Shown here piece after piece: positions 18,280-51,574 of a stretch of 64,000 bases of DNA (positions are counted from its first letter, which is position 1; every line of letters starts with the position of its first letter). The notes below the pieces were generated by a model. That model saw only the letters and a program-made list of their open reading frames with translations. It was not told the DNA's origin and did not search any database. Made by a program: the position numbers and the translations under genes. The DNA is from a phage. The DNA lies in sequence record PX418922.1. One strand, 5' to 3'.

Positions 18280-18585
18280 TTAGAATTCCTCTTCAGTCTT
18301 CTGTCGGTTTTTGAAGAATACTACGTCATATACCTCTCCGTAACCATCATTTACATAGAACATAATAAAACGATCATCTTCTGCTGTTGGTGCGCGATGT
18401 TCAAGTTCAAAACTTTCAATAAAACCGCGTGAATTTACGTAGTAGATTTCATCCTCGCCAGAGAACATCCAATCCCTGTCTATCAAATAGAAAGCTAAAC
18501 TCACAGGCGACAACTCATCCTTCACAGAATCATTGTACAGCATGTGGGCTGCAACTGCCAAGCTTAAAGTCGTATTGTGCTGCAT
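18280..18585 (-). CDS. hypothetical protein, tandem paralog 1
   Basis: Shares LSLAV...YYVN.G.GE...VVF pattern with the adjacent gene. Confidence 0.5.
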   Translation of the reverse strand: MQHNTTLSLAVAAHMLYNDSVKDELSPVSLAFYLIDRDWMFSGEDEIYYVNSRGFIESFELEHRAPTAEDDRFIMFYVNDGYGEVYDVVFFKNRQKTEEEF

Positions 18586-18896
18586 TACATCTCCTCGTCG
18601 GACTTCAAGGCTTTAGAGAATACTACGTTAAACGTTTCACCGCAACCATTATTAACATAATACATGATGTAATTGTCATCTTCGTCTACAGGCGCACGAT
18701 ACTCCAGTTCATAACTGTATAAATTAGAATTACTTGTGCAACCTTGTGGATACCAAAAGTAGAGTTCATCCCCAGATTCTACCCATTTAAGACCAGTCCG
18801 ATCTTCAAATACTAATGTAGATGGATTTTCTGAATCTTTTACAGCTTCTTCGTAATACTGGTGCACCGTAACTGCTAATGATAATGTACTCATCAC
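18585..18896 (-). CDS. hypothetical protein, tandem paralog 2
   Basis: Paralogous to 18280-18585. Confidence 0.5.
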   Translation of the reverse strand: MMSTLSLAVTVHQYYEEAVKDSENPSTLVFEDRTGLKWVESGDELYFWYPQGCTSNSNLYSYELEYRAPVDEDDNYIMYYVNNGCGETFNVVFSKALKSDEEM

Positions 18897-25422: not shown

Positions 25423-26409
25423 ATGGCAGCACCAAAATCATGGGAACAATATAAAGAAGAGTGTCAACCAATAGCAGAGAGTAAGCAAATCCAAATCTTA
25501 GGATGGACGGGAGAATGGAAAGGGGTTAATACAAAACTTGATTTGTTGTGTCATTGTGGTTATAAATGGGATACTACAAGTATTAACAATTTTAAACGTG
25601 GTAGTGGTTGTCCTTTATGTGGATATGAGAATACAAGGAAGGCACAAACAATATCCGACGATCAACATATTGCAGATTTCTTTTCTACAGGGAAGTTTAA
25701 GGAAGGCACTATTTTCACCAATACGGGGGAACGTAAAGGGTGTGATCCAGTATGGATGATTCAGTGTCCTGTTTGTTCTCATGATGAATATGTTAAAGCT
25801 GGACTATGTGATGGTAAGTTTTATATGACGCGTGGCAATCTTAAATATGGATACTTACCCTGCCGTTGCTCTGCATCTTATAGGTATACAGCGGAACAGA
25901 TTACGTATAAAGTAAGAAAGAAAATAGAAAAGAAAGGGTATGTTTGGATAGGATGGATTACCAAACCATCTTCTATAGGTAAGTTTAAATATATATGTAA
26001 GAGTCATGGGGAACAAAAAGGAACTGCAAACAACCTTTTAAACATAGGACAAGGTTGTCCGCAGTGTGCTAACAAAAATCAACAACAAGCCTACATTAAT
26101 TATATTTACGATGAGCAAGATATTATCTGTGCACTGAAGTTTGGTATTGCTAATAATAGTAATCGCCGTATGAAAGAACAAAATAGTCATAATGTGTTCA
26201 CTATGAAACAACACCAAGTGTGGCACTTCCCTACTGTTAAGCAATGCCAAAACGCAGAGAAATATTGCAAGAAGGTGTTAAACACGGAAGCAGTGAGCAA
26301 ATATTCTATGCAAGATGGCTACACAGAAACAGTGGAGCTATCTTGCATGGCATCCGTACAGAATATTTATAAACTTTATGGTGGAACATTACAGGAGGAA
26401 ACATGTTAG
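25423..26409 (+). CDS. zinc-ribbon repeat protein with C-terminal GIY-YIG / T5orf172-like domain, copy 1
   Basis: Repeated CxxC pairs; C-terminal YINYIY-(10)-KFGIA...R; paralog at 42111-43091. Confidence 0.45.
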   Translation: MAAPKSWEQYKEECQPIAESKQIQILGWTGEWKGVNTKLDLLCHCGYKWDTTSINNFKRGSGCPLCGYENTRKAQTISDDQHIADFFSTGKFKEGTIFTNTGERKGCDPVWMIQCPVCSHDEYVKAGLCDGKFYMTRGNLKYGYLPCRCSASYRYTAEQITYKVRKKIEKKGYVWIGWITKPSSIGKFKYICKSHGEQKGTANNLLNIGQGCPQCANKNQQQAYINYIYDEQDIICALKFGIANNSNRRMKEQNSHNVFTMKQHQVWHFPTVKQCQNAEKYCKKVLNTEAVSKYSMQDGYTETVELSCMASVQNIYKLYGGTLQEETC

Positions 26410-37524: not shown

Positions 37525-37908
37525 ATGAGCAATATCATCAACCTGGCAGCGACTGTAAACGGTAAAGACTTTAACGGCGCTGTAGACCGTGATCCTATGT
37601 GGTACTTGTCAGTGTTTAAAGGCGATCTGGTTGAAGTTAGAACAACCGAAGGGTATAGCGATGATTATAAATGCGAGATTCATTTACATAATTGGTACAC
37701 GGGTAAAACTTATGCGCTGAATCACGCGTTTATCGGAAAAATCGAATATCGTGAGATGATCGACGAAGAAACGGGGCAAGATTTTAGCGAAAACGTTTAT
37801 ATTCGTTCCGAGACATTAGCCGAACGTTTGATCGAGAAAATGAAAGCAAAAAATAAAATTAATTTATCTCATTGGATTGATATAACAAACGATCCAGCTT
37901 ATCAGTAA
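37525..37908 (+). CDS. island small protein (127 aa)
   Basis: Start moved to MSNIINLAAT... Confidence 0.5.
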   Translation: MSNIINLAATVNGKDFNGAVDRDPMWYLSVFKGDLVEVRTTEGYSDDYKCEIHLHNWYTGKTYALNHAFIGKIEYREMIDEETGQDFSENVYIRSETLAERLIEKMKAKNKINLSHWIDITNDPAYQ

Positions 37909-37924
37909 ATAACATTTCATACCA

Positions 37925-37950
37925 GGGCGCACAAAGCGCCCTTTCTTTTT
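37925..37950 (+). terminator. intrinsic terminator closing the island
   Basis: GGGCGC-ACAAA-GCGCCC then TTTCTTTTT. Confidence 0.65.
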
Positions 37951-39529
37951 GCCCGAACAATGTTGATAGATTCCGCCTATGGAAAACCGACACAGAACAA
38001 AACTGAATAAATAGCGGTATCAAGCTAATCAACCATTAAATGAATAACCATACCTCCCAGGGTAACAGGCTGTTAGAGAGCCATTTAAAGCGGTTAAAAT
38101 CGATCAACAACCAACAACAAACCATCAAAAACACCCTTTTACCTCCTTTCTAGTGCAATGATAACCATTATCATCTATCCATGTTTATCTATACAATATA
38201 AGTGCATAATTATAATGTTGATAATAGTTCGCAACAACTAACCAACAAACAACATAAAACAATAAGCAAACTAATCATAATCAAAGGAATAATAGCAAGA
38301 TGATTGATAACAACAAACAATCAAACCATGATGAATACTAAGCAAGATAACGATAACACGACAAAACAACCAACTAACGAACAATAACAAACGAAACCAT
38401 TAAAATAATAACTATTGCCATAATAGTGACTAAATGAAATCATTACAAAACGAATCATTCACAGAGTCATCATTAGCACGCTATGCCGGACACATAGCGA
38501 GCTAATAATAAGCCAACTACACCCCAACAATCATAACCATCGGTGATGGTTATTTCTTGTTACTGCGTAGCTTGCAATAATTGCAAGCGTAATGACGCTT
38601 ACACTTATTGCGCTGGCTTATTATTAGCATTATATGTAATTACCAAGATCATAACATTAGCGCAATAACAATAATCATTGTGGTAATTACGTAAGGAAAC
38701 AATTAGCATGGCAATAATTATGGGGCAATGGGAGGATGATTATCATCATTCCGATACATTGCACACTATGCACATAATAGAATAAAAAGCAATAATTTTG
38801 GGGGCGAAATGTTACCGCCACAGGCGGGAATGTTGAGCACTAAGAAAAGAGATAAACCTTAATCATGGGGGCGTAAATATCCGCAGGATTGCCAACGGCG
38901 ATCCGGTAGGATGTTGAGCATCTTCTCTTAAACGTAAATAAAATCAGAAAATTCTTGATTTATTTTAGTTTTTATGTTAATAAACGTTTAAATAATAATC
39001 ATTCTCATATAAATAATAGTCTGCTTGTCATGAGCGGGATTAGTTGACAATGTTCCGTCATATGATGAAGTTGCCAACCTATTGATAAATAAGTGTTTGT
39101 GTGATTTATAATCAAGTGGCCCACCTTGTCGCTACGTTGGCATAAGCCTTGCATAAGTCATTGAATACGAATGATAATTATTCTCATTCGCATGATATTT
39201 GGGAATTGTCGCTGCGTGGACCTGACGGCCCGAAAATTCGCGTTAAGCACTTCTTACGTATGCGCCATGATTTTTGCCATATGATATTGATTCTATTAGA
39301 TATTCTTGCCATGATTGCCATGAAACAGGGTGTCCCGAAATAATCTTTCCCCGTAGATATTTTGGGTTACTTTTTATACAAGAGTGGGGTGTCAAAAATA
39401 ATCGGTATATATGGGATAATTGATAGGAATCCCCTATGATAATTCGATTGTAATTCCCTGAGATTGATCGTATGATGTTGGTGATTGATGATTGCCATGA
39501 AAGATGGCTAACGATGAGAGGAGATTATC
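37951..39529. other. 1.6-kb non-coding, repeat-rich region with strand-skewed A+C content
   Basis: No ORF of 60 aa or more; CAACAA/ACAAAC low-complexity runs; palindromes; Fur-box-like sites at 38991-39010 and 39169-39189. Confidence 0.5.
38570..38588. repeat. 19-bp palindrome
   Basis: GCTTGCAAT-A-ATTGCAAGC, 9-bp arms. Confidence 0.6.
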
Positions 39530-39904
39530 ATGCAAGAGAGTAAAAATATTCCGTTGAGCAGTGCAGCATTGCTTCGCTTCTATAAAGCATGGATTGCCAA
39601 CTATCCTGCAATGAATCGCACAACGAGTGGCTTATGTGGTTGTCTGGTGGATTATGTAGATGATTTTGTTGGTGAGACAACTAGAGAAGAAGATAGAAGA
39701 TGGCGGGATAGTTTGTTGGACCGTTTGAAATATGAAATGAGGAGACAATTTACATGTGCAGGGCTGGACTATAATCTTCCGTTCAATGCAGATTGCATGG
39801 ATTACCTTTCAGAGTGTATAAACTTGGCGTGTCATACCAACACGTTACGTCTTCAGTGGGTGAAAGACAGAATTGAAGATGCAAATAATGTTTGCATTGA
39901 ATAA
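39530..39904 (+). CDS. hypothetical protein, paralog family A copy 1
   Basis: Shares Y..W......GLC.CL....PF.....WVKD pattern with 44137, 49930, 51236. Confidence 0.5.
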   Translation: MQESKNIPLSSAALLRFYKAWIANYPAMNRTTSGLCGCLVDYVDDFVGETTREEDRRWRDSLLDRLKYEMRRQFTCAGLDYNLPFNADCMDYLSECINLACHTNTLRLQWVKDRIEDANNVCIE

Positions 39905-39963
39905 AAATGTCTGTATAGTGGTTTGCATACCGCGCATAACAGATAGCCAATGAGGAGATTGAA

Positions 39964-40173
39964 ATGTCAAATATGAAAACTGTATCCTTGTATTTAGCTA
40001 ACACTGATCGTGTGCACACCCTTGCTAACGCAAGTCGTGTACTCGTGCAGTTCCGAAACTTTAAGCCGTCCGTTGTGACAGGCAGTGAAACGTGTGTTAT
40101 CGATTTCATTAACGAATACTTCCGAGGGAATCCGGTTGGTCGTTACTTTATTAAGGGTTTGAAGGATGCATAG
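39964..40173 (+). CDS. hypothetical protein (69 aa)
   Basis: ORF track. Confidence 0.45.
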   Translation: MSNMKTVSLYLANTDRVHTLANASRVLVQFRNFKPSVVTGSETCVIDFINEYFRGNPVGRYFIKGLKDA

Positions 40174-40396
40174 TATGAAACGCATGAAAATTCGTATTGA
40201 GAATGATGGTGGTTATAAAGGATTGGCACATGCAAAATTTCCACTTGTGTTGGAAGCTACGGTGGAATACAGTGGGCTTGCTCATGTGCGATTCTCGAAG
40301 ATGATGGAAGTGCAGGAATGGTTTTGGGACGAGATAGATGCACGAGAAGGAGAAGATTATGTTTTCTTTCCTCACGAATATAACATTGTTTATTAA
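40166..40396 (+). CDS. hypothetical protein, paralog family B copy 1
   Basis: Shares W.WF..D.....DYVFF..E.N with 44847. Confidence 0.45.
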   Translation: MHSMKRMKIRIENDGGYKGLAHAKFPLVLEATVEYSGLAHVRFSKMMEVQEWFWDEIDAREGEDYVFFPHEYNIVY

Positions 40397-40399
40397 AGG

Positions 40400-40648
40400 T
40401 TGTGTGCAATGATCACACCACAACAGAATGAAGCAGCAATGGATCTTCTTGATAGTTTGTATTTCGATAATTGGTACTCTGAATGTGAATGGATGAATAT
40501 GCAAACTCTGAAAGAGAAGACAAAAGCGTTGATTACAGTAGATCAATTTCTTGCAGAGACGGAAAGAATGAATTATGATATGGCATCTCGCGCACGACGC
40601 GTTTCCATTTTCAATAAAATGTTAGCATTATGGGGAGGTAGAAAATGA
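40400..40648 (+). CDS. hypothetical protein (82 aa)
   Basis: ORF track. Confidence 0.45.
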   Translation: MCAMITPQQNEAAMDLLDSLYFDNWYSECEWMNMQTLKEKTKALITVDQFLAETERMNYDMASRARRVSIFNKMLALWGGRK

Positions 40649-41106
40649 GACAACCATCTATACTGGAAGCGCATGTGCAATGTGTTGTAGATTATGTCAA
40701 AGAACACTCAAGTTTGTTGAATGTAACCTGTGCAGTGCAAAATGATGTAGGTATTGTCTGTGTGCAACATATCTTATCTGAAACTCGTTATGAAGTATTT
40801 CGTGCCACGTTGTTTGGATGTGATCGAGTGCATGTAAACTTCCTGGACTCCAATTATCGTTATGCTTTAGAAAATATTGATGATTATCTTCCTTGCTCTC
40901 CGACAGGATATGTAATGGTAACAGCAAACGAAGTAACACCGAGCAACAGTGAACAGGAAGCTTTGTTACGGAAGAAAATACGCCAACTGCAAGTGTTGAA
41001 TGAACTGAAAGAAGAGATTGAAAAAGAACTGAAAGAAGATTTTGGTATGCTTCCAAAAGACGCTTTGAAATGGTATGATGAGTTAGGAGGAGAGAACAAT
41101 GTTTAA
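40645..41106 (+). CDS. hypothetical protein (153 aa)
   Basis: ORF track. Confidence 0.5.
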   Translation: MRQPSILEAHVQCVVDYVKEHSSLLNVTCAVQNDVGIVCVQHILSETRYEVFRATLFGCDRVHVNFLDSNYRYALENIDDYLPCSPTGYVMVTANEVTPSNSEQEALLRKKIRQLQVLNELKEEIEKELKEDFGMLPKDALKWYDELGGENNV

Positions 41107-41557
41107 AGAAGGTCATGTCTACCGTTTCCAGGATGAGGATTATATGCGATTATATTCTACCTTTGATAACAGTATTGCTGCTATCATTGGAGAGAATTTT
41201 TTCGAGGTGTTGAGCACTGATGCAAATGGTAATATCTTGTCAATGGTTGTAATAGGTATGAGAGACGGTATTATCACTGCTGGTGATGGGGATCGTTACA
41301 TAATCAATTCTGCTCATATAGATTATTTTGTTGACGGTGGTGTTCGTGGTGGTCGTGGAAAACCCCAAGAAGAACCTGTTGATACAACAAAAGAAGAGTG
41401 GTATGTTGTAATGACTGATGACACCTGTATTTCTGGATTTGAAAGTTATGAAGAAGCTTTGAAAGAAGCAGCAGAGCATAAAATGGCTAATCCTACAGAA
41501 GAGGTTGAAGTTTATAAACGTTTGGTTGTTGCTACCATCGGCGTATCTTTTGTTTAA
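41099..41557 (+). CDS. hypothetical protein (152 aa)
   Basis: ORF track. Confidence 0.5.
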   Translation: MFKEGHVYRFQDEDYMRLYSTFDNSIAAIIGENFFEVLSTDANGNILSMVVIGMRDGIITAGDGDRYIINSAHIDYFVDGGVRGGRGKPQEEPVDTTKEEWYVVMTDDTCISGFESYEEALKEAAEHKMANPTEEVEVYKRLVVATIGVSFV

Positions 41558-41569
41558 AAGGGGAATGTT

Positions 41570-42007
41570 ATGTTTAAAGTTAATGCTGTTTACTGTTTCA
41601 AAAGTAAAGCTGCCTGTGAAGCTTTCTCTATGATCTCTGATGAAAATTTCAAAATGGCAGCTTTGATTGAAGGGTCTTGTTTCCGCGTCGAGGATGTTAG
41701 TGAATCAGGGTCTGTTTGCTCATTGACTTTATTGGACAGCGGGGATATTATTGAAGCTGGACAGTATCCGTTCAGGAGTTGGGAGATATTGTTAGCTCGC
41801 GGAGAGCGTAACTTTTTTATGTGCGTGTCTGCGGGGGAAGTTGTGAAAGAAACTAAGGATGTTTCTGTTTACAATTCTGAATTTATAAGTTATAGTGAGT
41901 ATCAACATCTGGAAGGCATTGTTGGTCACTTGTTATCTCTGATTGACATTGAATGTGACCTGCCTGAATCATTGAAAGAAGAGTTGAAAGCATTAGATCT
42001 GCTGTAA
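41570..42007 (+). CDS. hypothetical protein (145 aa)
   Basis: ORF track. Confidence 0.5.
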   Translation: MFKVNAVYCFKSKAACEAFSMISDENFKMAALIEGSCFRVEDVSESGSVCSLTLLDSGDIIEAGQYPFRSWEILLARGERNFFMCVSAGEVVKETKDVSVYNSEFISYSEYQHLEGIVGHLLSLIDIECDLPESLKEELKALDLL

Positions 42008-42110
42008 TGTTTCGCACAACGGAGACTAAGCATGTCGATTGTTTACCTGGCTGTTTGGTTCCGCTGTGATTTGTTTGTCCTGTCGGGGCATTTTTAGGAG
42101 TCTGGAAGTA

Positions 42111-43091
42111 ATGGCTAAAACTAAAAGTTGGGAAGAACATTTAAAAGATTGTTTAGAGGTTGTAAAACCAGGTGTTAAGATACTAGGATGGTCAGGAGAA
42201 TGGAAAGGAGCACATACCCGTTTGCGGTGCGTGTGTTCTGTTCACGGGGAATGGACTTCCACCACAATACATAAGTTTAAAATGGGGAGAAGTTGTCCAG
42301 GTTGTAGGACAGATGCTTCAGCCCATGCTAGACACAACGGAGATAAGTTTTGGTTGGATTTGTTGTATAATTTTTGTCAAGAACGAGATTTCTTTTTTGA
42401 AGTGCCTCAACCTCCTATCTACGGTAGGTCTGAAATCAAGATCTGCTGCCCGAAACACGGTACATTTAGAAGTACACTAAGTAATATACAAAAACAAAGA
42501 TCATGTCCCATGTGTAAAGTAGATGCAGCCAGAGAGAATAATCTTTTACCTGACCAATATCACGTGGAGAAGTACATGGCGACAGGTTCTTTTCCACAGG
42601 GCAGTTTATTTCGTAGAATAGGTAAAACAAGAAGTTCGAAAGGTTCAGCACAAACATGGGAGTGCTACTGTCCCACATGCAATGAAACACATCTTGCACG
42701 TGATAGCAATCTGGCTCAAGGTAAGCGACCATGTTCTTGTTCAGGGAATAATCAGAAGCAAGCGTACATTAATGTGGTATTTGACAACAACACTCCTATA
42801 GCTTTAAAGTTTGGAATAGCAAGAAACAGTGCACAAAGATTAGCCGCACAAAATAAAAAGAATTTTTTGAAGATGGATTGCTTGGCGGTATATTCTTTCA
42901 GAACAGTCAGAGAATGTAAAGCTGCGGAACGCGCTTGTAAGAGGATGCTGGTCTGTAGTACAGTAGGTAAGAAAGAAATGGTTGACGGGTATACTGAAAC
43001 AACATATATTTCTAATTACGATACAATTGTGGATATCTATAAGAAGTTTGGAGGTGTGAAGTTGCAAATGATAAAGAAGAGTACCGAGTGA
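42111..43091 (+). CDS. zinc-ribbon repeat protein with C-terminal GIY-YIG / T5orf172-like domain, copy 2
   Basis: Start moved to MAKTKSWEEH after GGAG; paralog of 25423; C-terminal YINVVF...KFGIA...R. Confidence 0.45.
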   Translation: MAKTKSWEEHLKDCLEVVKPGVKILGWSGEWKGAHTRLRCVCSVHGEWTSTTIHKFKMGRSCPGCRTDASAHARHNGDKFWLDLLYNFCQERDFFFEVPQPPIYGRSEIKICCPKHGTFRSTLSNIQKQRSCPMCKVDAARENNLLPDQYHVEKYMATGSFPQGSLFRRIGKTRSSKGSAQTWECYCPTCNETHLARDSNLAQGKRPCSCSGNNQKQAYINVVFDNNTPIALKFGIARNSAQRLAAQNKKNFLKMDCLAVYSFRTVRECKAAERACKRMLVCSTVGKKEMVDGYTETTYISNYDTIVDIYKKFGGVKLQMIKKSTE

Positions 43092-43188
43092 GGCGTACAC
43101 ATATCTATTAAATTTGGATTGTTTATAAAGAAATGGATCTAAACGGAGCATATGAGTGGATCACTATTGATTGGTCGGAGGTGAAATA

Positions 43189-43398
43189 ATGGTTACTATC
43201 ACGTTGACAGTTACACAAGAGCAAGCAGAAGAATTACGTGATGCACTGGCATATATGGGACGCGCTTATTATATGCCTCACAAATCTCAAGATGTTTTTG
43301 CTACAGCCGTTGAGAAAGCTTTAAACAAATACCGAGAAACTCATGCCGTTCCTAAAGTATCAGCAGAAGAGTTTGGCACTTGGCACGAAGTTCACTGA
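43189..43398 (+). CDS. hypothetical protein
   Basis: Start moved to ATG after GGAGGTG. Confidence 0.45.
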   Translation: MVTITLTVTQEQAEELRDALAYMGRAYYMPHKSQDVFATAVEKALNKYRETHAVPKVSAEEFGTWHEVH

Positions 43399-43408
43399 GG
43401 AGGTTTCG

Positions 43409-43663
43409 ATGAAAGGTAACAAGATGAAAGTTAATCAAGTGCCGAGCGCATACACTTTGTGGCTTGCGCGAGCGTTACACCAGACGATCAAAGACCCTAA
43501 GAAGCCAATGAAGAGTGGGAAGAAGTTTATGTCTAAGGGCAAAACAACCTTTGGCTTCACTCGTATGTCTGTTAAGATGAAAAGGCTGGGGGGTACAAGC
43601 CAAACTACGCTCGTTACCCTTCTGAATACAACTGGTTTGATTAAAGAGGAGAACAAAACATGA
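43409..43663 (+). CDS. basic hypothetical protein
   Basis: Start moved to ATG after GAGGAGG. Confidence 0.45.
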   Translation: MKGNKMKVNQVPSAYTLWLARALHQTIKDPKKPMKSGKKFMSKGKTTFGFTRMSVKMKRLGGTSQTTLVTLLNTTGLIKEENKT

Positions 43664-43944
43664 AAACATCTATTCGCGTAAAACATGATCCAAACAGCAG
43701 TTACCCATATGTGTATGTTGAACGTCATGAAGGGGACTATTACACCATAAAACGTAAAGTCCCAACTGATACAGGGTTTAACTTTGATGTTATTGCACTG
43801 GATGATCAAGGTGTTGATAATCTGGTAAATGCATTACTCGCATTGAAGGAAGTACGACATGAAAATCAGACTAAAGGTAAAGTGGCTTTCGATTCTTGTG
43901 ATCGTTTAGCCGAAGAGATTGCCGAATGGCGTGATACTCACTAA
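43660..43944 (+). CDS. hypothetical protein (94 aa)
   Basis: ORF track. Confidence 0.5.
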   Translation: MKTSIRVKHDPNSSYPYVYVERHEGDYYTIKRKVPTDTGFNFDVIALDDQGVDNLVNALLALKEVRHENQTKGKVAFDSCDRLAEEIAEWRDTH

Positions 43945-43959
43945 AACAGGAGAAAGATT

Positions 43960-44136
43960 ATGGCTACTTTTCAACAACTGAAAGATGTTTCACGTTTAGT
44001 AAGAAAAATCCGAGAAGCAGACGCTGCTGTGCGGAATGCATTAACGCCAGCAGAGCGTGAAGATCTTGAAGAGGAGGTGAAAACAGCCGAGAATGCTTTT
44101 GCTGCGTATCTTTCAACACTGTATACAGGAGGTTAA
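43960..44136 (+). CDS. small hypothetical protein (58 aa)
   Basis: Read manually; AGGAGAAAG upstream; fills the gap before 44137. Confidence 0.4.
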   Translation: MATFQQLKDVSRLVRKIREADAAVRNALTPAEREDLEEEVKTAENAFAAYLSTLYTGG

Positions 44137-44451
44137 ATGTCAGAAGAACTTAAAGAATTTTATCAAGCATATCATAACTGGCTGTTAGCTGGTGCTCCAG
44201 ATAATAATCCTTTCTGGCATGATAAAGGATTATGTAGTTGCCTCTACCTTTGGACTGGAGGTTATGATGATCTAAATTATGAAATGCAAATGCAATTCCG
44301 TGAGGCAGGATTGTCTGAAGAATACCCGTTTGATGACGGAGACTGGTTTAAATATGATTTTGCACAAAGAAACGGGCTATTGCATTTGAATGCTGCCCGT
44401 ATAAAATGGGTAAAAGACCATGCTACACAGGAGGATGTGCAATGCCAATAG
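44137..44451 (+). CDS. hypothetical protein, paralog family A copy 2
   Basis: Family A pattern. Confidence 0.5.
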   Translation: MSEELKEFYQAYHNWLLAGAPDNNPFWHDKGLCSCLYLWTGGYDDLNYEMQMQFREAGLSEEYPFDDGDWFKYDFAQRNGLLHLNAARIKWVKDHATQEDVQCQ

Positions 44452-44642
44452 TGTTTAGTTTCTTAGTAATTGTTATGGTTGTTCTTTTCGCGGCATGGCT
44501 TTGGGATTTTGACCCAGGAGCAGCGCAGCAAAGAGCTACAGACTGGAAAGAACAATGTATTGTGCTCAAACATGAACGAAATGCGGAGAAATTTCTTGAC
44601 CTAGAGTGTGATCGCCTTGTAAGATACAAGCAAGATAAATAA
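44442..44642 (+). CDS. small membrane-anchored protein
   Basis: Start moved to MPIVFSFLVIVMVVLFAAWLW after GGAGG. Confidence 0.45.
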   Translation: MPIVFSFLVIVMVVLFAAWLWDFDPGAAQQRATDWKEQCIVLKHERNAEKFLDLECDRLVRYKQDK

Positions 44643-44656
44643 CCTTGAGGTGCAAA

Positions 44657-44845
44657 ATGGTAATTGAGATTAAACTTGAATATGCTGGGGCTGTTGCTCT
44701 GATCGCACAAATGCTTGGAGCAAAGATTGAAGAAGTGTATATCAATGCCTGGAGCGTAGAGATTGATGTTCCTATGGACAACATTGCTAATCGCTTGCTG
44801 GTGGCAGAGTGTGAACGCACCAACATAATCTACAAAGGAGCATAA
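44657..44845 (+). CDS. hypothetical protein
   Basis: Start moved to ATG after GAGGTG. Confidence 0.45.
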   Translation: MVIEIKLEYAGAVALIAQMLGAKIEEVYINAWSVEIDVPMDNIANRLLVAECERTNIIYKGA

Positions 44846-44846
44846 T

Positions 44847-45068
44847 ATGAAAATTAGAGTTTGTGATGTATTGGGTTATGTTGGTTTTGAGAATGTTCAG
44901 ATTCCTTTTGTTGTTGAAGCACATCTTGTTAGCGACGATATGACAACATTCTTTGTTACGATAGAAGAAATGTCCAAAGTTGAGGGATGGGAGTGGTTTG
45001 AAGAAGATGTTTGGGAAGGTTGTGATTACGTATTTTTCTCTGACGAAGTGAATGTTCTTGCGGAGTAG
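44847..45068 (+). CDS. hypothetical protein, paralog family B copy 2
   Basis: Family B pattern. Confidence 0.45.
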   Translation: MKIRVCDVLGYVGFENVQIPFVVEAHLVSDDMTTFFVTIEEMSKVEGWEWFEEDVWEGCDYVFFSDEVNVLAE

Positions 45069-45070
45069 GT

Positions 45071-45277
45071 ATGTCTTGTTTTACAAAAGCAGTGTCCATA
45101 TGTAAGAAACAGTATGAAAGTGATTACGGAATATTTAATATTCCAGCAGATCATACAAAGTATTGTTCATGTGGTGGCAGAATGAAGAAAACAGTGATTT
45201 ATGCGGATAGTGGAGACGAACTTGTTCCGGTTATGGTTTGCAAAGCTTGTCATTCTGTTAAAACATTAAAAGCGTAA
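45071..45277 (+). CDS. small zinc-ribbon protein
   Basis: CSCGG ... CKACH cysteine pairs. Confidence 0.45.
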   Translation: MSCFTKAVSICKKQYESDYGIFNIPADHTKYCSCGGRMKKTVIYADSGDELVPVMVCKACHSVKTLKA

Positions 45278-45372
45278 GGAGTCGGGACACCCGACGATTG
45301 GAGCTAAAAATTTTGCGTACAACCCTTTCCGCCCAACAGGGGCGCGTCGGGTAAATAAAGAGGAGAGTTTAT

Positions 45373-45771
45373 ATGAAAAAGATCATCGTAGGTTTATTGT
45401 TACTCATTGCATCACTCGGAACAGCAAATGCGTCTCAAGTTTATGAGTGTGTGTCAGATGTGGTTGTTAAAAATCTGAAAGGTGAAGTGATTTCTGGTCC
45501 TAAGAAAATGGCTTCTGTTGTCATTAATAAAGATAACTCCTTTATCCTTAAAAATTCAGGTGGTGCTTTGATGAGTGGCATTCTGCAATACACAGGAGAA
45601 AAAAGTAAAGATGGTAGTGCTATGTATGGTTCACAACAGTTTATTGGCACTACTGAAGTTGTGATGATGCGCACAGAGTATCGAGACACTTTAGCTTGGT
45701 TTGCATTTCTAAAAAATGATAAAACAATAACAAATGTTCTTACTCTAGAAGCCGATTGTACGCAACGATAA
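45373..45771 (+). CDS. secreted hypothetical protein
   Basis: Signal peptide MKKIIVGLLLLIASLGTANA. Confidence 0.5.
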   Translation: MKKIIVGLLLLIASLGTANASQVYECVSDVVVKNLKGEVISGPKKMASVVINKDNSFILKNSGGALMSGILQYTGEKSKDGSAMYGSQQFIGTTEVVMMRTEYRDTLAWFAFLKNDKTITNVLTLEADCTQR

Positions 45772-45781
45772 GGGGGTATTT

Positions 45782-46237
45782 ATGACTAAAGTGCGACATT
45801 ACGCTGTAAACTGCAACGATGCTTGGCGTTTGTGTCCTGATGATCCGACAGAAGGCACATTTGTAAGATATGAGGATTATAAAGAATTATCGGATGCTGT
45901 AATCGCATTGTTAACTGATATCCGTTCACGTTATCCAGGACAAGATTTCACTTGCCCTCACATCAAACTTCTTGCTTGCCTGGTAGAAGGTGAGAAAGAA
46001 GTGGAAGATGGCTTCAAGCGTGTAGAGTATCAAGGTGAAACTTTAGATGTTCCTGAATTTGTTAATTATATTGCAACAGATTCGAGTGGCGAGCGTTATG
46101 GTTACACTCATAAACCGGAGATTCCAGATTTCGCTTATGCGTGGCGTATTCCTTATGAAGTTTTTAATGTTGCAGATTGCTGGTATTTAGGAGAAGGAAA
46201 CAACCTTAATTGGCGTGATTCCTTGGTTCAGGTTTAA
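45782..46237 (+). CDS. hypothetical protein (151 aa)
   Basis: ORF track. Confidence 0.5.
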   Translation: MTKVRHYAVNCNDAWRLCPDDPTEGTFVRYEDYKELSDAVIALLTDIRSRYPGQDFTCPHIKLLACLVEGEKEVEDGFKRVEYQGETLDVPEFVNYIATDSSGERYGYTHKPEIPDFAYAWRIPYEVFNVADCWYLGEGNNLNWRDSLVQV

Positions 46238-46241
46238 CAAT

Positions 46242-46505
46242 ATGAAAGAGACATTGCCAGCAGCATACCGTTTGAATGATGAACGTATTTGGGAGTGGAC
46301 CGACGTTTCTTGTTTTTACCCTGAAATAGTTCAATATTGGCGAGCAAAAGGGTGTGTTGTAGTTATCAACCCATGTGGACCAGTGGATGAAGATTGCTTG
46401 TATCTCGATGGAAAGTGGCACAGTTATTGTCGCTGGCCTTTTGAGTGGATGTGTAAAGAAGATCTCCCAGAGGGTTGGGAGTATCCAAAAGCAAATAGGA
46501 GATAA
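46242..46505 (+). CDS. hypothetical protein
   Basis: Start moved to the ATG just after the upstream stop. Confidence 0.45.
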   Translation: MKETLPAAYRLNDERIWEWTDVSCFYPEIVQYWRAKGCVVVINPCGPVDEDCLYLDGKWHSYCRWPFEWMCKEDLPEGWEYPKANRR

Positions 46506-46506
46506 T

Positions 46507-46869
46507 ATGTCTAAAGATTTTGTTGAAATGTTTGTCAAAGATGAAGAAACTGGTTTAGGCACAGGTTTCATTTGTGAAGAAACCTTTAAACGTGAACAAG
46601 AAAAAGCTATTCTTATGCGAAACTATGATCACGCATTAGAACAATGGAAAAATGCAGAACAAAAATGCAAAAACCTTTATGCAGAAAATAGAAAACTACA
46701 AGATCAAATGGAGTTGTTAGCTATCAGTTTACGATCTCTCATTTTGGCTGTAGAAGATGGTTTTAAAAATCCAGATGGTTTTCCTGTGAGCGATATTGAA
46801 CATGATTTGTATCTTGCTCGTGGTGCTTACTTCTATGTTAAACAGAAGTCTGTAGAAGGAGAGAAGTGA
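46507..46869 (+). CDS. hypothetical coiled-coil protein
   Basis: Start moved to MSKDFVEMF after AGGAG. Confidence 0.45.
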   Translation: MSKDFVEMFVKDEETGLGTGFICEETFKREQEKAILMRNYDHALEQWKNAEQKCKNLYAENRKLQDQMELLAISLRSLILAVEDGFKNPDGFPVSDIEHDLYLARGAYFYVKQKSVEGEK

Positions 46870-47066
46870 TGGAAGAAAAACTGGAACGTATTATCGAGTT
46901 AGCCATGTCTATTGGCTACGACGATTGTTTTCTCCAAACTATTGGAGAAATAGAGAACGATTACGACTCTTGGGTGAAAGAGTTGGAAGAACTTAAAACT
47001 TCCTTGATTGCTGACTTTGCTGAAGCAGAGGATAAAGCAGATCGTTACAACTATCTGTGTCGATAA
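46866..47066 (+). CDS. hypothetical protein (66 aa)
   Basis: ORF track. Confidence 0.45.
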   Translation: MMEEKLERIIELAMSIGYDDCFLQTIGEIENDYDSWVKELEELKTSLIADFAEAEDKADRYNYLCR

Positions 47067-47068
47067 AG

Positions 47069-47096
47069 CTTGACACACGCTTCCTGTATGGTATGC
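47069..47096 (+). promoter_or_regulatory. sigma70-like promoter
   Basis: TTGACA-N16-TATGCT then TTACCAC. Confidence 0.45.
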
Positions 47097-47126
47097 TTAC
47101 CACATCAAGACAATAAGGAGAGAAAA

Positions 47127-47471
47127 ATGACTAAACTTTTGTGCGTATCATCTTCCGTTCCATATTTCACTGTTGGTAAGCAATACCCTGTGACAAATAC
47201 GGACGAGGATGTAGATTACTACTGGATCAATAGTGATGACGGAACAGATTGTGTTATTGAGTTGAGAATGCGCTGCGCCACTTTTGAGGTGGTAACTGAA
47301 AACGTGATGCGTCTTTTCGAGATCCGATATACAAAAGATAACGGCAGTATTAAAACTTATCAGATCCCAGCCCTTTCTATCTACGACGCATGTGTACGTT
47401 TGGGTCAGATTTACGGGGACGATAAATACTACCGTGACGATGTGTCCATTCATGTGGTAGAGGTGGTGTAA
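47127..47471 (+). CDS. hypothetical protein
   Basis: Start moved to MTKLLCV after AAGGAGAG. Confidence 0.5.
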   Translation: MTKLLCVSSSVPYFTVGKQYPVTNTDEDVDYYWINSDDGTDCVIELRMRCATFEVVTENVMRLFEIRYTKDNGSIKTYQIPALSIYDACVRLGQIYGDDKYYRDDVSIHVVEVV

Positions 47472-47472
47472 T

Positions 47473-47745
47473 ATGAATAAAGATCGGTTTCTTTCTTTAG
47501 TCGCGGAAGCTCCTTTTGATGTTCTTGGGGTGAGATTATGGAAAGACAGAAACTATGGGTTAGATGTTCAAACATACTCTCTTTGGTTGGTTGGGGAGCA
47601 CAGCTTAGATGAAAGCTTGTGCATGGGTAGGGATTCTCGTTCCCTCTGTTTAAAGTTCAGAAGCTTAGAACGCGCAAACAAAGAGCAAGAAAAACTAACG
47701 AGGTGGCTAAATGAAAACAAGCGCAAGGTTGATGGAGTTTTATAA
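47473..47745 (+). CDS. hypothetical protein (90 aa)
   Basis: ORF track. Confidence 0.45.
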   Translation: MNKDRFLSLVAEAPFDVLGVRLWKDRNYGLDVQTYSLWLVGEHSLDESLCMGRDSRSLCLKFRSLERANKEQEKLTRWLNENKRKVDGVL

Positions 47746-47932
47746 AATTTATCTAGCATGGATTGATGTTGGTGCTCCTGATGGTAAACCTTTTCGGCGG
47801 GATTGACTTTGGGTCATTGTTTGGCAAACATTGAAGATGTTGTGATCCAAAGGGTTGTTTTAGAGAAAGAGGCTATTTGAGAGAAGACGGCACAATACTT
47901 AAATATAAAGATTAACCACAAAGGAGATAGAT

Positions 47933-48232
47933 ATGCAAGTTGAAGACCTGATTAAAATTTTGAATGAAGCTAAAGAGAAAGGTGCTATCAAGGACTGGAA
48001 ACGTGAAACAAGTGAAGACCTATCTCATTGTTGCCGAGAGTTTTACATCGAAGGTATTGCTGACGATCATTATACTATCGAATGGTATATCAACTTAATG
48101 ACCCTTAAGCACGGTTCATTTGAGATTTGGTTTGATGACATTGATGTAAATGGTTTTCATCCTGGCTATAAAATCGCTATGCAGTTATCTTATCGTAGAG
48201 AAGTTGTAGCACATTTGGGTTTACATAACTAA
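47933..48232 (+). CDS. hypothetical protein (99 aa)
   Basis: ORF track; AAGGAGATAG upstream. Confidence 0.5.
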   Translation: MQVEDLIKILNEAKEKGAIKDWKRETSEDLSHCCREFYIEGIADDHYTIEWYINLMTLKHGSFEIWFDDIDVNGFHPGYKIAMQLSYRREVVAHLGLHN

Positions 48233-48242
48233 GGAGAAAAGA

Positions 48243-48566
48243 ATGCAAGCAGTTGTTAACGAAGCTATTATGAACTTATCCTTCTTGTTAGCTGGTTTAG
48301 GAGGTGTTCTCATAGGTTTGGCTCTTATCTGGTGTATTCGTCGATTAATCGGGTACCGACAAAAAGGTGTTTCATGTTTTGTATCTTACAATTTTACAAC
48401 TGCTTACAGCAATGAAGTTGGATCTGGTAATGCTCAAGCATTTTTACCAACATATCCTCCTACGGTGGAAGATATTCGAAACTTGGAAGTACAACTTATG
48501 GGACTAGGTGATAACTATACATCTCTAGTTATTCAAAATATTTTTCGACTAAAACAGGGGGCGTGA
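48243..48566 (+). CDS. membrane-anchored hypothetical protein
   Basis: N-terminal hydrophobic helix. Confidence 0.5.
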   Translation: MQAVVNEAIMNLSFLLAGLGGVLIGLALIWCIRRLIGYRQKGVSCFVSYNFTTAYSNEVGSGNAQAFLPTYPPTVEDIRNLEVQLMGLGDNYTSLVIQNIFRLKQGA

Positions 48567-48779
48567 ATGAAGGTACATTACCCTCATCCATTTGATCCTA
48601 AAAACAAAGCCGTAATTCTTCGTCAGTGGCAACGGGTTTGTCGTACTAAATGTCCAATCAATAGCCCACACAATGTAGACAAGGACTATCTTGGGACATT
48701 TGTTGAATACACTTACATAGACAAAAACAAGCGTAAACAGCATGTCGAGGAATACTGCTTAAGAGTAGAATGGCTGTAA
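48567..48779 (+). CDS. hypothetical protein (70 aa)
   Basis: ORF track. Confidence 0.45.
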   Translation: MKVHYPHPFDPKNKAVILRQWQRVCRTKCPINSPHNVDKDYLGTFVEYTYIDKNKRKQHVEEYCLRVEWL

Positions 48780-48791
48780 ATAATAAATACC

Positions 48792-48820
48792 TTGACAAGT
48801 GTTTATTCGTTTTGTAAAGT
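48792..48820 (+). promoter_or_regulatory. sigma70-like promoter
   Basis: TTGACA-N17-TAAAGT ahead of the recombinase gene. Confidence 0.5.
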
Positions 48821-48849
48821 GAGAATACAGCAATGGTTTAGGAGTGGTT

Positions 48850-49521
48850 ATGAAAAAGTTTGTTGTTTACAGTCGTCTTTCTAAACAGAAAAAAGGTGAG
48901 GCACAATATGGTATGGAGAGCCAAGAGAATGATATCCGTTACTTCTTAGACTCTGTGCCTGATGCGGAAGTTATTGGTCAATTTTCTGAATACTATTCGG
49001 GTAAGGGCGATTGGAAGCAACGTAAGGAACTGGTTAAAGCGGTTGAAATGTGTAAAGCTACCGGAGCAACTTTATTGGTAGCTAAAGTTGACCGCTTGGG
49101 TCGTAACAACGCCTCCGTAGCAACTCTTCTAGAAATGATCGATGTTAAGATAGCCATTATGCCAGACGCAGATAAAATGGTTATACAGCTTCTGTCTGTT
49201 CTGGCTGAACAAGAAGTTAGAGGTATTGCTGATCGTATTAAAAAGGGTCTTGCTGTAGCAAAAAGCAAAGGTGTTTTATTAGGCAGTGCTAATCCTAAAA
49301 CTGCCGCTGCACGTAGAAAAGGAAAAATGGAATACAACTCTGTTAAAGCAGACGCTTTTGCAGAGACATTCCGTGAACGCTTGGAGATCCTTAGAGATTT
49401 AAATACACCTTACAAAACTATTGCTGAAAAATTCAATAGTAAGAAAATAGCAACAGCACGTGGTGGTAAATGGGATGCTAAAACTGTTTCTCGTTTGTGT
49501 GCCAGACTGAACATTAAATAG
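48850..49521 (+). CDS. serine recombinase (resolvase / invertase family)
   Basis: N-terminal YSRLSKQKK (catalytic Ser region) and LLVAKVDRLGRN motif; start moved to ATG after AGGAG. Confidence 0.55.
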   Translation: MKKFVVYSRLSKQKKGEAQYGMESQENDIRYFLDSVPDAEVIGQFSEYYSGKGDWKQRKELVKAVEMCKATGATLLVAKVDRLGRNNASVATLLEMIDVKIAIMPDADKMVIQLLSVLAEQEVRGIADRIKKGLAVAKSKGVLLGSANPKTAAARRKGKMEYNSVKADAFAETFRERLEILRDLNTPYKTIAEKFNSKKIATARGGKWDAKTVSRLCARLNIK

Positions 49522-49529
49522 GAGAGGAT

Positions 49530-49952
49530 ATGAAACAAGAAAATGAATCTGTAGATCACTTAATCATGCTGTCAGCCCTTTTTGCCGGATGGGACGTATT
49601 TTTTGAAAATTTGTTCAATTCTGCTACAGATGGTTCCGATTTTATGCGCCAGTTTAAACGACGAACTGTTGAGGACTATGCTTTCTATTCAGGTCGGATT
49701 GAAAAAGGTTACGAAGATACAAATACAACACTCACCATTAAAGTTTTAGATGTGATGTTTAGTGTTATAGATGCTATCGACGAAAGTCTTCCGATCCTAG
49801 ACAATTGTAATACGAAAGCCTATGTTTACAAAATAGCTCGTGCTTATGTGTCTGCAAACAGTTGTCTTCTTTCCACCCAGATTGCCGTGAACAATCTTGC
49901 CAACTTGTTTGATGAAGGAGAAACTTTTTATGACAATCGATTTGAAGTGTAA
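49530..49952 (+). CDS. hypothetical protein (140 aa)
   Basis: ORF track. Confidence 0.5.
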   Translation: MKQENESVDHLIMLSALFAGWDVFFENLFNSATDGSDFMRQFKRRTVEDYAFYSGRIEKGYEDTNTTLTIKVLDVMFSVIDAIDESLPILDNCNTKAYVYKIARAYVSANSCLLSTQIAVNNLANLFDEGETFYDNRFEV

Positions 49953-50295
49953 GAGGATTCTTTTAGATTTCTATAATAATTGGTTAGAACACCTCCGGCT
50001 CTTTCCAAGAGAAAGTGGTTACGCTGATGTTGGCTTATGCCGAGGTCTACGTATGTATATAAGTGGTGAATTTCGGGCCGAGCATTCTTTAGCATATTCT
50101 GTTTATGGTATGCAATTAGCCAGTTTTGAAAACGCTGGCTTAGATACAACTTTCCCATTTAACACAGCAAAATCTTTTGAGCAAGAGTGTAAGGAAAAAC
50201 GTTGCATGTTTAATGAAAAACGTGTACAGTGGGTTAAGGATCGAGTTAAACAACTGGAACAAGAGTTGGATTTCTTCTATGATGAGGCAGAATAA
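49930..50295 (+). CDS. hypothetical protein, paralog family A copy 3
   Basis: Start moved to ATG after AAGGAG; family A pattern. Confidence 0.45.
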   Translation: MTIDLKCKRILLDFYNNWLEHLRLFPRESGYADVGLCRGLRMYISGEFRAEHSLAYSVYGMQLASFENAGLDTTFPFNTAKSFEQECKEKRCMFNEKRVQWVKDRVKQLEQELDFFYDEAE

Positions 50296-50567
50296 TGGAT
50301 AGACAAACCTTAAAAACAATGGCAGATGCCACTAATTCCCCGTACTTTGAAAAAGTAAGTAAATTGGTAGCTAAAGCCGCAGAGGAAGGATATTATAACA
50401 TAAACATCCATAACCCAAGTCTTATACTAGAAATGCCAAGTGATAAGAAGATACAAGAGAGTATCTGTGAAGGTATTGTTAGTTACTGGCGCGAGCGTGG
50501 GTGTGGTGCAAACATGGCTTTAGACAGTGCAAACATTGTAAGATATATAAATATTTCTTGGGGGTGA
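50295..50567 (+). CDS. hypothetical protein (90 aa)
   Basis: ORF track. Confidence 0.5.
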   Translation: MDRQTLKTMADATNSPYFEKVSKLVAKAAEEGYYNINIHNPSLILEMPSDKKIQESICEGIVSYWRERGCGANMALDSANIVRYINISWG

Positions 50568-50608
50568 TTTTATGATTCAATGCACTCATATCCAAATTAC
50601 TTGGAGAG

Positions 50609-51184
50609 ATGAACTTTACCATTTTGGGACAATTTACTGTAGGGGAAACATACCCTGTCATTAAACATAATCCTAACATCGCAAACTTTGATAGGATGGT
50701 TCTTGTTGAGGACGATCTGGGTCAAACTTATTCTTTAGATCTAAAATATCCGTTTTCTTACGGCTACGATTGGATCGTTACTTTTGAAGACGTGGAGGAA
50801 AATAAAACAATGAACGAAAAAAATTCTTGGTATTATCGTTGTGAACTGCCGCCAGTAGGTGAAAAGGTTATCTTTGTTCCTGATTTGGAAAGATATTCTT
50901 GGGACAGTTCTTATTCTATTCCTAAAGAAGGCACCGAAGTTGAAGTTATTGCACATCGCACAACTTCGCATGGTAACGATGTAGCAGTTGTTTTCTGGGA
51001 TGATGAAGGTGCTGCTTGTGCAGGTGGCTTTGTTGCAGGTAATTTTGAACCCCTGCCAGATCCTTTGAAGGAGGCAATTTTAGGCGTAGCTTCTTTTGGA
51101 CTCTCTTACACATCTGCACAAGAGATCGTAGAAGGTATTTTAAACGGTACCGTTCCAAACGAAATTTTTAAACAGATTAAATAA
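50609..51184 (+). CDS. hypothetical protein (191 aa)
   Basis: ORF track. Confidence 0.5.
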   Translation: MNFTILGQFTVGETYPVIKHNPNIANFDRMVLVEDDLGQTYSLDLKYPFSYGYDWIVTFEDVEENKTMNEKNSWYYRCELPPVGEKVIFVPDLERYSWDSSYSIPKEGTEVEVIAHRTTSHGNDVAVVFWDDEGAACAGGFVAGNFEPLPDPLKEAILGVASFGLSYTSAQEIVEGILNGTVPNEIFKQIK

Positions 51185-51235
51185 TAGTTGCACCCCGTTC
51201 TGCGGGGTGTTATTGTATATGTAAAGGAGGCGCTA

Positions 51236-51574
51236 ATGTATTACACTGAAGACTACATATTGTATAACTTTTTTAAAGGTTGGTTGAAATGGGCGGAACA
51301 AGCTCCTGTCGGAGATTGTGTTTTTCCTTGGGATTCTCGTCAAGGCTTGTGTCGTTGTTTGGAAGATTGGCTTATAACCACAAACTACAATTCAGAAACT
51401 AAGAAATCTACATCAAACAGATTAAAAATGTTGTTTGAAGAAGATGGTTTAGATCCAATTTATCCTTTCGGTGAGGAAAGTTTCCACAATGGTCTTTTCC
51501 TTGGCACTCAACATTATGATAAAGATCGTGTAGATTGGGTAAAAGAAAAGGTAGCACAGTATGAATGGGGTTAA
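51236..51574 (+). CDS. hypothetical protein, paralog family A copy 4
   Basis: Start moved to ATG after AAGGAGG; family A pattern. Confidence 0.45.
   Translation: MYYTEDYILYNFFKGWLKWAEQAPVGDCVFPWDSRQGLCRCLEDWLITTNYNSETKKSTSNRLKMLFEEDGLDPIYPFGEESFHNGLFLGTQHYDKDRVDWVKEKVAQYEWG

Follow-up and report, generated by a model that had tools for sequence, protein, structure and literature searches.

Four diverged paralogs of an unnamed protein family in the putative early region of a Phapecoctavirus phage

The phage sequence PX418922.1, 64,000 nucleotides in length (the window, meaning the whole stretch analysed), raises the question of why one phage should carry several divergent copies of the same small gene. 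A first-pass annotation had pointed to four such genes and had suggested a rapidly evolving family under selection, a pattern associated with host-range or anti-defence factors. The four genes, here termed A to D, are by their sequences homologous, functional and anciently diverged paralogs. The family to which they belong is already catalogued as an unnamed PHROG (phrog_2510, ‘unknown function’) and is otherwise undescribed.

All four open reading frames (ORFs) were confirmed on the plus strand at the proposed starts, 39530, 44137, 49930 and 51236, and encode proteins of 104–124 amino acids. Paralog A (39530–39904) encodes 124 amino acids. Paralog B (44137–44451; 104 amino acids) is the shortest and most conserved copy, C (49930–50295; 121 amino acids) overlaps the end of its upstream gene by 23 nucleotides, and D (51236–51574; 112 amino acids) is the most divergent copy. 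Each has a strong Shine-Dalgarno sequence 5–9 nucleotides before the ATG, and the four ATG starts are the coding-sequence starts annotated in relatives. A pattern scan shows a terminator-like hairpin on the plus strand at 51190–51210, just upstream of D, with a 9-bp stem that includes six G-C pairs and is followed by a T-rich tail. A terminator is annotated at the matching site in phage Schickermooser. A longer, TTG-started version of D was ruled out because the hairpin falls inside that ORF, which favours the ATG at 51236. D is probably the first gene of a new transcription unit.

The evidence for homology is at the level of the proteins. The alignment of A–D has 17 invariant columns and pairwise identities are 23–33%. 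BLASTP comparisons among the four give E values of 1e-5 to 1e-9, with the exception of the A–D pair (0.01). In Smith-Waterman comparisons, all six pairs score above all 1000 composition-preserving shuffles of the partner (z = 7.2–15.7); thus the similarity is not compositional, and the shared residues and the diversified family that had been proposed are real. All four proteins match phrog_2510 over profile positions ∼5–112, with E values of 1.1e-24 for A, 8e-29 for B, 3.2e-26 for C and 6.1e-27 for D; weaker matches are to the related PHROGs 6418 and 27059. The common skeleton described in the first-pass annotation is present overall but is not uniform. F-[YF]-x-x-W occurs in all four, with three extra residues in B, and PF is also found in all. 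GLCxCL is present in A, B and D and reads GLCRGL in C, and WVKD is present in A, B and C and reads WVKE in D. The proteins are mildly acidic (isoelectric points of 4.5–5.5). Searches of the 64-kb window with a family hidden Markov model (HMM) and with BLASTP reveal no further full copy.

About 70 GenBank phages of the genus Phapecoctavirus are 95–98% identical to the 13 kb around A–D, and the window is on this basis assigned to that genus, i.e. to the phAPEC8-like Escherichia coli myoviruses of the subfamily Stephanstirmvirinae. Nearly all genes of the 13-kb region are annotated ‘hypothetical protein’ in these relatives. Selection was assessed by Nei-Gojobori counts between the window and seven other Phapecoctavirus genomes, and the ratio of non-synonymous to synonymous substitution rates (dN/dS) does not bear out rapid evolution. 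B shows 66 synonymous and 3 non-synonymous changes (dN/dS 0.01), C 37 and 13 (0.08) and D 61.5 and 20.5 (0.07). A shows 40.5 and 58.5, a ratio of 0.34, which is still below 1. For the other 28 genes of the region with orthologs, dN/dS lies between 0.01 and 0.36; B, C and D do not exceed the level of their neighbours, and A alone is relaxed. Together with the Shine-Dalgarno sequences, the values of 0.01–0.08 for B, C and D mark the paralogs as real genes under selection.

Sequence conservation in the GenBank phages, as determined by tblastn, follows the same lines. Orthologs of B, C and D, wherever they exist, show identities of 95% or more, except for two D records at 90–95%. B is at least 99% identical in 58 phage records; A varies from 60 to 99%. 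In addition, B is 48% identical to a protein of Dhillonvirus vs at most 40% to the paralogs of its own genus, and because B is closer to the former, the copies are old lineages and not recent duplicates produced in an arms race.

What varies within the genus is the number of copies. The seven other Phapecoctavirus genomes have 5–7 copies in the same block, which fill seven slots, and the window with its four intact copies has the smallest set. Slots A, B, C and D are occupied in all genomes and form the core. The accessory slot A0, directly upstream of A, is filled in five of the seven relatives by a copy 49% identical to A. Slot E holds an intact gene of 108 codons in all seven relatives, and slot F a gene 51% identical to E in four of them. 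In the window, E survives as a remnant of 31 codons on the plus strand (47711–47803, or to 47806 with the stop) whose translation is MKTSARLMEFYKIYLAWIDVGAPDGKPFRRD followed by the stop. It is cut just before the GLC motif by a ∼1.07-kb deletion relative to phage vB_Ec-G1, and with a shorter ORF cut-off it matches family HMM positions 2–22 (E 0.017). The description of a four-member family is thus correct for intact copies but overlooked this truncated fifth copy.

A itself is an A0::A chimera, with the first ∼11 codons from A0 and the remainder from A. Homology switches from the A0 5′ end to the A 5′ end within a 16-nucleotide overlap at 39547–39562 (plus strand): in blastn comparisons with relatives L006 and L003, positions 39000–39562 match the A0 5′ region and 39547–40200 match A. 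The N-terminus of the window A protein, MQESKN..., is that of A0 in genomes with both copies. As read from these alignments, the junction marks the loss of A0 in this genome. The dynamic part of the family is therefore its copy number, 4–7 per genome, which changes via deletion and recombination between paralogs. On a longer time scale, the first 16 kb of phage phi92 contain no homolog of most window genes but do have two copies of the family; the early block as a whole turns over between genera while the family persists.

How widespread is the family? Word-indexed homolog searches reached close relatives only (29 and 7 hits). An exhaustive HMM search of 1.84 billion cluster representatives succeeded and gave 1,448 proteins at E ≤ 1e-3, 417 of them at E ≤ 1e-10, so that the family comprises at least 1,448 clusters at 50% identity. 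Members are mostly 100–125 amino acids in length; among the best 150, about 20 have two domains and one has three. A search for the family in other phages had been proposed, and it was found in unrelated virulent phages of Proteobacteria. By tblastn of GenBank phages these are Phapecoctavirus and Justusliebigvirus (phi92 gp006 and gp010), N4-like Schitoviridae of Erwinia, Achromobacter, Klebsiella and E. coli, Autographiviridae-type podoviruses of Ralstonia, Rhizobium, Klebsiella and Pectobacterium, and Dhillonvirus siphoviruses. BFVD fold matches extend the list to Delftia phage PhiW-14 and Burkholderia phage BcepSaruman, in which the family is multi-copy. Matches are present in 159–168 phage records, and the consensus sequence matched one of 72,556 plasmids. 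A motif scan of bacterial genomes, one per species, which covers members with the R[IV]QWV[KR]DRI motif, found two marginal loci in 185,579 species. The family thus appears to be almost confined to virulent phages.

Existing annotation offers few leads. None of A–D reaches any Pfam or NCBIfam gathering threshold, and the family has no model in either collection. PADLOC gave no family at E ≤ 1 for A–D and three multi-domain members. Cluster names are only ‘hypothetical protein’ or ‘DUF551 domain-containing protein’, and DUF551 itself occurs solely as a domain fused to the N-terminus of some distant members. Pfam, NCBIfam and PADLOC scans of multi-domain relatives yielded nothing else. A literature search on phrog_2510, phAPEC8 paralogs and DUF551 found no paper on this family in the library covered.

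Structural models were made for B and for one tandem member. The AlphaFold2 model of B, based on a 16-sequence alignment, has five helices (residues 3–17, 32–40, 44–56, 70–78 and 86–97), with a predicted local distance difference test (pLDDT) value of 87.5 and a predicted template modelling (pTM) score of 0.80. BFVD models of other family members, which were predicted independently, superpose on it at template modelling scores of 0.7–0.85. Sequence searches of the PDB with 4-sequence and 119-sequence profiles gave no match at E ≤ 10, and there is no solved structural relative among the fold matches of the B model. Neither is there fold similarity to the solved DNA mimics Ocr and ArdA, the Acb2, Tad1 and Tad2 sponges, AsiA-type anti-sigma factors or Arn, nor any significant match to a DNA-binding fold. 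Natural tandem fusions of two and three family domains exist. AlphaFold2 predicts both domains of a natural two-domain member with confidence, joined by a low-confidence, disordered linker (pTM 0.59), and the domains therefore look like independent modules in the model. An obligate dimer or pseudo-dimer was considered and rejected, as the tandem model has no confident packing between domains.

Conservation was determined from 196 domains and is given here in full-length B numbering. At the N-terminus, L5 is conserved at 97%, F8 and Y9 at 94% and W15 at 81%. The GLC motif consists of G31 (97%), L32 (95%) and C33 (99%), and position 35 is N in 51% and C in 26%. These are followed by E49 (81%), Q53 (85%), F54 (96%) and L59 (91%), by P64 and F65 (both 99%) and N66 (68%), and by Y73 (79%) and E76 (72%). 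The C-terminal part has H83 (74%), N85 (88%), R88 (99%), W91 (95%) and V92 (93%). The near-invariant set (F8, Y9, W15, G31-L32-C33, F54, L59, P64-F65, R88 and W91-V92) is complete in A–D, apart from Y9F in D, and is also found in the A0, E and F proteins of relatives, with W15Y in E and F. Most of the universal residues are either hydrophobic or Gly or Pro. Eight polar residues form a consensus (C33, E49, Q53, N66, E76, H83, N85 and R88), and the paralogs differ in how many they keep: A has all eight, B six, C five and D three. C is without the consensus E49, Q53 and H83, and D keeps just C33, H83 and R88. A also has seven cysteines in its 124 amino acids and belongs to a subfamily with the pattern C-x-C ... 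C-x4/5-C-H, found in 14 of the 196 domains. This might represent a metal site in part of the family, an association that is confounded by phylogeny.

The position of the genes may say something about when they act. GC skew and the ORF map show that small plus-strand genes form a single long block at ∼22–56 kb. In phi92, the annotated left direct terminal repeat (1–343) is immediately followed by an array of small plus-strand genes, and window positions 39141–39254 and 39354–39445 share homology with the final part of this repeat and with the sequence just beyond it. Several Phapecoctavirus records in GenBank begin at about window position 38917 (83 bases before 39000). No ORF of at least 70 amino acids is found in the ∼1.6 kb from 37908 to 39530. 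The repeat homology and the start of related records suggest that the physical genome end is probably inside the window, in the region of ∼37908–39530, and with this ORF-free region the homology makes A the first gene after the terminal-repeat region.

A similar placement is seen in other phages. The family member gp09 of Ralstonia phage phiAp1 is located between annotated host promoters and the gene for primase, that of Erwinia phage Ea9-2 (Ea92_07) is upstream of RNAP1, and in many other podovirus records the distance to the left end is 1.4–8 kb. Such regions are early by the gene order established for T7-like and N4-like phages. Family members are thus located in early regions of Autographiviridae and Schitoviridae phages too. 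We infer early expression of A–D by this analogy, and their genome position fits genes that would act early on the host. A literature search for early genes and transcriptomes of Phapecoctavirus and Stephanstirmvirinae found no transcriptome.

The end of A has a further peculiarity. The last ∼50 nucleotides of A plus the spacer (39854–39936) are 99% identical over 83 nucleotides to phi92 566–648; flanking homology to phi92 is 69–94%, and the body of A is deleted in phi92, which belongs to another genus. Two promoter-like sites, at 39860–39889 and 39891–39919, are within this stretch, which might act as a conserved element of regulation or be a hot spot of recombination.

What, then, might these proteins do? 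We tentatively favour, at somewhat less than even odds, the interpretation that A–D are small early proteins that bind host components by way of diverged surfaces on a shared scaffold; the binding and the partners are the inferred steps. The family would consist of cytoplasmic proteins of ∼100 amino acids, mildly acidic and five-helical, that occur almost only in virulent phages. By analogy, the small-gene block by the genome end would be expressed first after DNA entry. Each copy would then act as a stoichiometric binder of one host component for host take-over, and the dispensable copies might possibly serve in counter-defence. The few near-invariant residues would fix the common scaffold, which agrees with their being mainly hydrophobic, Gly or Pro. 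Surfaces and polar consensus residues would have diverged between paralogs, and this divergence suggests different partners for each copy. The core copies A–D would be kept by purifying selection, and the accessory A0, E and F would come and go by recombination between paralogs. Binding to host components is also suggested by the partial loss of the polar consensus in C and D, both of which are still strongly constrained, by domains that behave as independent modules, and by the confinement of the family to early regions of virulent phages whose replication and transcription systems are unrelated.

Several points weigh against this interpretation. The timing is read from gene position, all records of the family say ‘hypothetical protein’, and counter-defence proteins are not usually as nearly invariant as B is within the genus. 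Also, C33 and R88 are conserved at 99%, and E49, Q53, H83 and N85 at 74–88%, across phages of alpha-, beta- and gamma-proteobacteria; this looks more like an invariant-ligand site or catalytic centre than a protein-binding surface. The proteins could accordingly be small enzymes, or binders of a small molecule or metal, with a pocket of C33, R88, H83, N85, E49 and Q53 that acts on an invariant ligand, e.g. a nucleotide signal or cofactor, and with C and D changed in specificity or non-catalytic. Such a pocket is consistent with the conservation of these residues in phages of very different hosts, and with the placement of the conserved polar residues at helix ends and loops of the B model, where C33 is in the first turn of helix 2. 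Sequence periodicity puts E49 and Q53 on the same helical stripe as the hydrophobic M50, F54 and A57, and the CxC...C...CH pattern of A-type domains could bind metal. However, one in four members of the family has no H83, strong purifying selection acts on C and D even though they lack three and five, respectively, of the eight polar residues, an all-helical domain of 100 amino acids is small for an enzyme, and the co-occurrence of cysteines is confounded by phylogeny. We consider an enzyme or ligand binder unlikely, but it is the main rival, and the 99% conservation of C33 and R88 means that it has to be taken seriously. A bolder form of the idea, for which the chances appear slimmer still, is that the new fold and its conserved Cys/Arg/His/Asn/Glu/Gln pocket represent a class of small phage enzymes, or of proteins that bind signal molecules, that was not known before, expanded to 4–7 specialised copies in large virulent phages and disarming several host pathways right after DNA entry.

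Two other interpretations are both rather improbable. One is that the proteins serve the phage's own programme and do not act on host proteins or defences; they could be, for instance, regulators of early-to-middle transcription or of replication, or adaptors. That B, C and D are core genes and nearly invariant in the genus is in keeping with this, as is the persistence of the family from Phapecoctavirus to phi92, where most neighbouring early genes have no homolog. But T7-like, N4-like and rV5/phi92-like phages and siphoviruses all have family members, and their transcription and replication systems are unrelated, which makes a shared phage-internal partner unlikely. Moreover, the proteins are acidic and have no significant DNA-binding fold match, and multiple copies, some of them dispensable, are atypical of core regulators. 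The other interpretation is that of an arms-race family of anti-defence or host-range factors diversified by positive selection. The genes are indeed early-placed, small, multi-copy and variable in copy number; close relatives differ in whether they have the accessory A0, E and F, dN/dS is highest for A, which is 60–99% identical in genomes where B is at least 95% identical, and other large phages, PhiW-14 and BcepSaruman among them, have independent expansions. Against this stand the dN/dS values, far below 1 for all four genes and 0.01–0.08 for three, and the fixation of B, C and D in the genus. Neither PADLOC nor the known anti-defence folds gave a match; Atd1, the anti-defence gene known from Phapecoctavirus, belongs to a different family; and nothing suggests a role in adsorption. 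Proteins that bind different host components on one scaffold remain our preferred reading.

Other genes in the window show duplication or mobility as well. A second paralog pair on the plus strand, 40166–40396 and 44847–45068, encodes proteins of 76 and 73 amino acids that are 38% identical, and both match phrog_15322 (unknown function). They follow A and B at distances of 0.3 and 0.4 kb, respectively, and the arrangement hints at an old segmental duplication of a unit made up of A or B plus the small gene. A functional module of this pair with the family was considered and rejected, since the first 16 kb of phi92 carry the family but not the pair. The adjacent plus-strand genes 41099–41557 and 41570–42007 both match phrog_3710 (unknown function) and look like a weak paralog pair; phage vB_Ec-G1 has an ortholog of 41570–42007 together with an extra 786-bp gene that is absent in the window, and both are labelled ‘goF mRNA metabolism modulator’. 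In the block of genes on the opposite strand, 18280–18585 and 18585–18896 (minus strand) are tandem paralogs of ∼100 amino acids and are 46% identical.

The gene at 42039–43091 (plus strand) encodes a 350-amino-acid protein with a CapR domain that matches PHROG endonuclease families. It has no ortholog at that position in seven close relatives, and on this account looks like a mobile insertion of the homing-endonuclease type that is specific to this genome. A paralog at 25423–26409 (plus strand; 31% identity over 347 amino acids) has a CapR domain and a weak, sub-threshold T5orf172 match. The 114-amino-acid ORF at 47127–47471 (plus strand) has no ortholog of at least 70% identity in the seven relatives, and since DNA homology to them is interrupted at ∼47108–47461, it represents a second genome-specific segment. 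The early block of this virulent phage also carries, at 48844–49521 (plus strand), a gene for a serine recombinase (Pfam Resolvase, E 5e-18). Within the genus it hardly varies, with 45 synonymous vs 1 non-synonymous changes. In several GenBank records its product is named ‘methionine ABC transporter ATP-binding protein’, apparently through an error of annotation.

The family is among the larger uncharacterised families of virulent-phage early proteins, with no Pfam entry, solved relative or literature. It has a confident predicted fold, a small set of near-invariant residues and, in the core and accessory copies of one genus, a natural experiment. These make it a practical target in the search for a new mechanism of host take-over or counter-defence, in phages that are already used in E. 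coli therapy. The family is a well-defined candidate and not the discovery of a mechanism.

How do A–D compare with known systems? An anti-defence gene described from Phapecoctavirus and Justusliebigvirus encodes Atd1, a MazG-like anti-TIR pyrophosphatase (10.1101/2022.06.09.495361; PMC11724313). The likeness to A–D lies in the same phage genera and in a small helical protein (PMC11724313; 10.1101/2022.06.09.495361). An identity of A–D with Atd1/MazG was rejected: with no Pfam match above threshold the proteins are not MazG-like by sequence, and the twin EExxE/D motifs are absent from the alignment. There is no MazG-type structure among the fold matches of the B model, and a regular-expression search of the window for the phage NTase motif given in the Atd1 paper found nothing. 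The closest catalogued entry is phrog_2510, which A–D match over their full length; its profile length of 219 fits the tandem two-domain members. The entry records no function, multi-copy state, early-region position or conserved residues.

The class I genes of T7, which include Ocr, the pre-early genes of T5 and the host-takeover module of SPO1 are small takeover genes located by the genome end. The block in the window resembles these in its small genes, mostly without known function, on one strand, near a terminal repeat and with good ribosome-binding sites, and the analogy is one of position only. It differs in that A–D resemble none of the solved early proteins, Ocr, ArdA, AsiA and Arn included, in sequence or in fold. 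The Alt, ModA and ModB proteins of T4 are early paralogs with a shared chemistry and different targets; they are ADP-ribosyltransferases of ∼200–680 amino acids with a known catalytic motif. The family described here is all-helical, with ∼100 amino acids, and has no detectable relation to them. Nevertheless, both cases involve diverged paralogs of one fold that are found side by side in one phage, and Alt, ModA and ModB provide a model for how copies with a common core can have different substrates.

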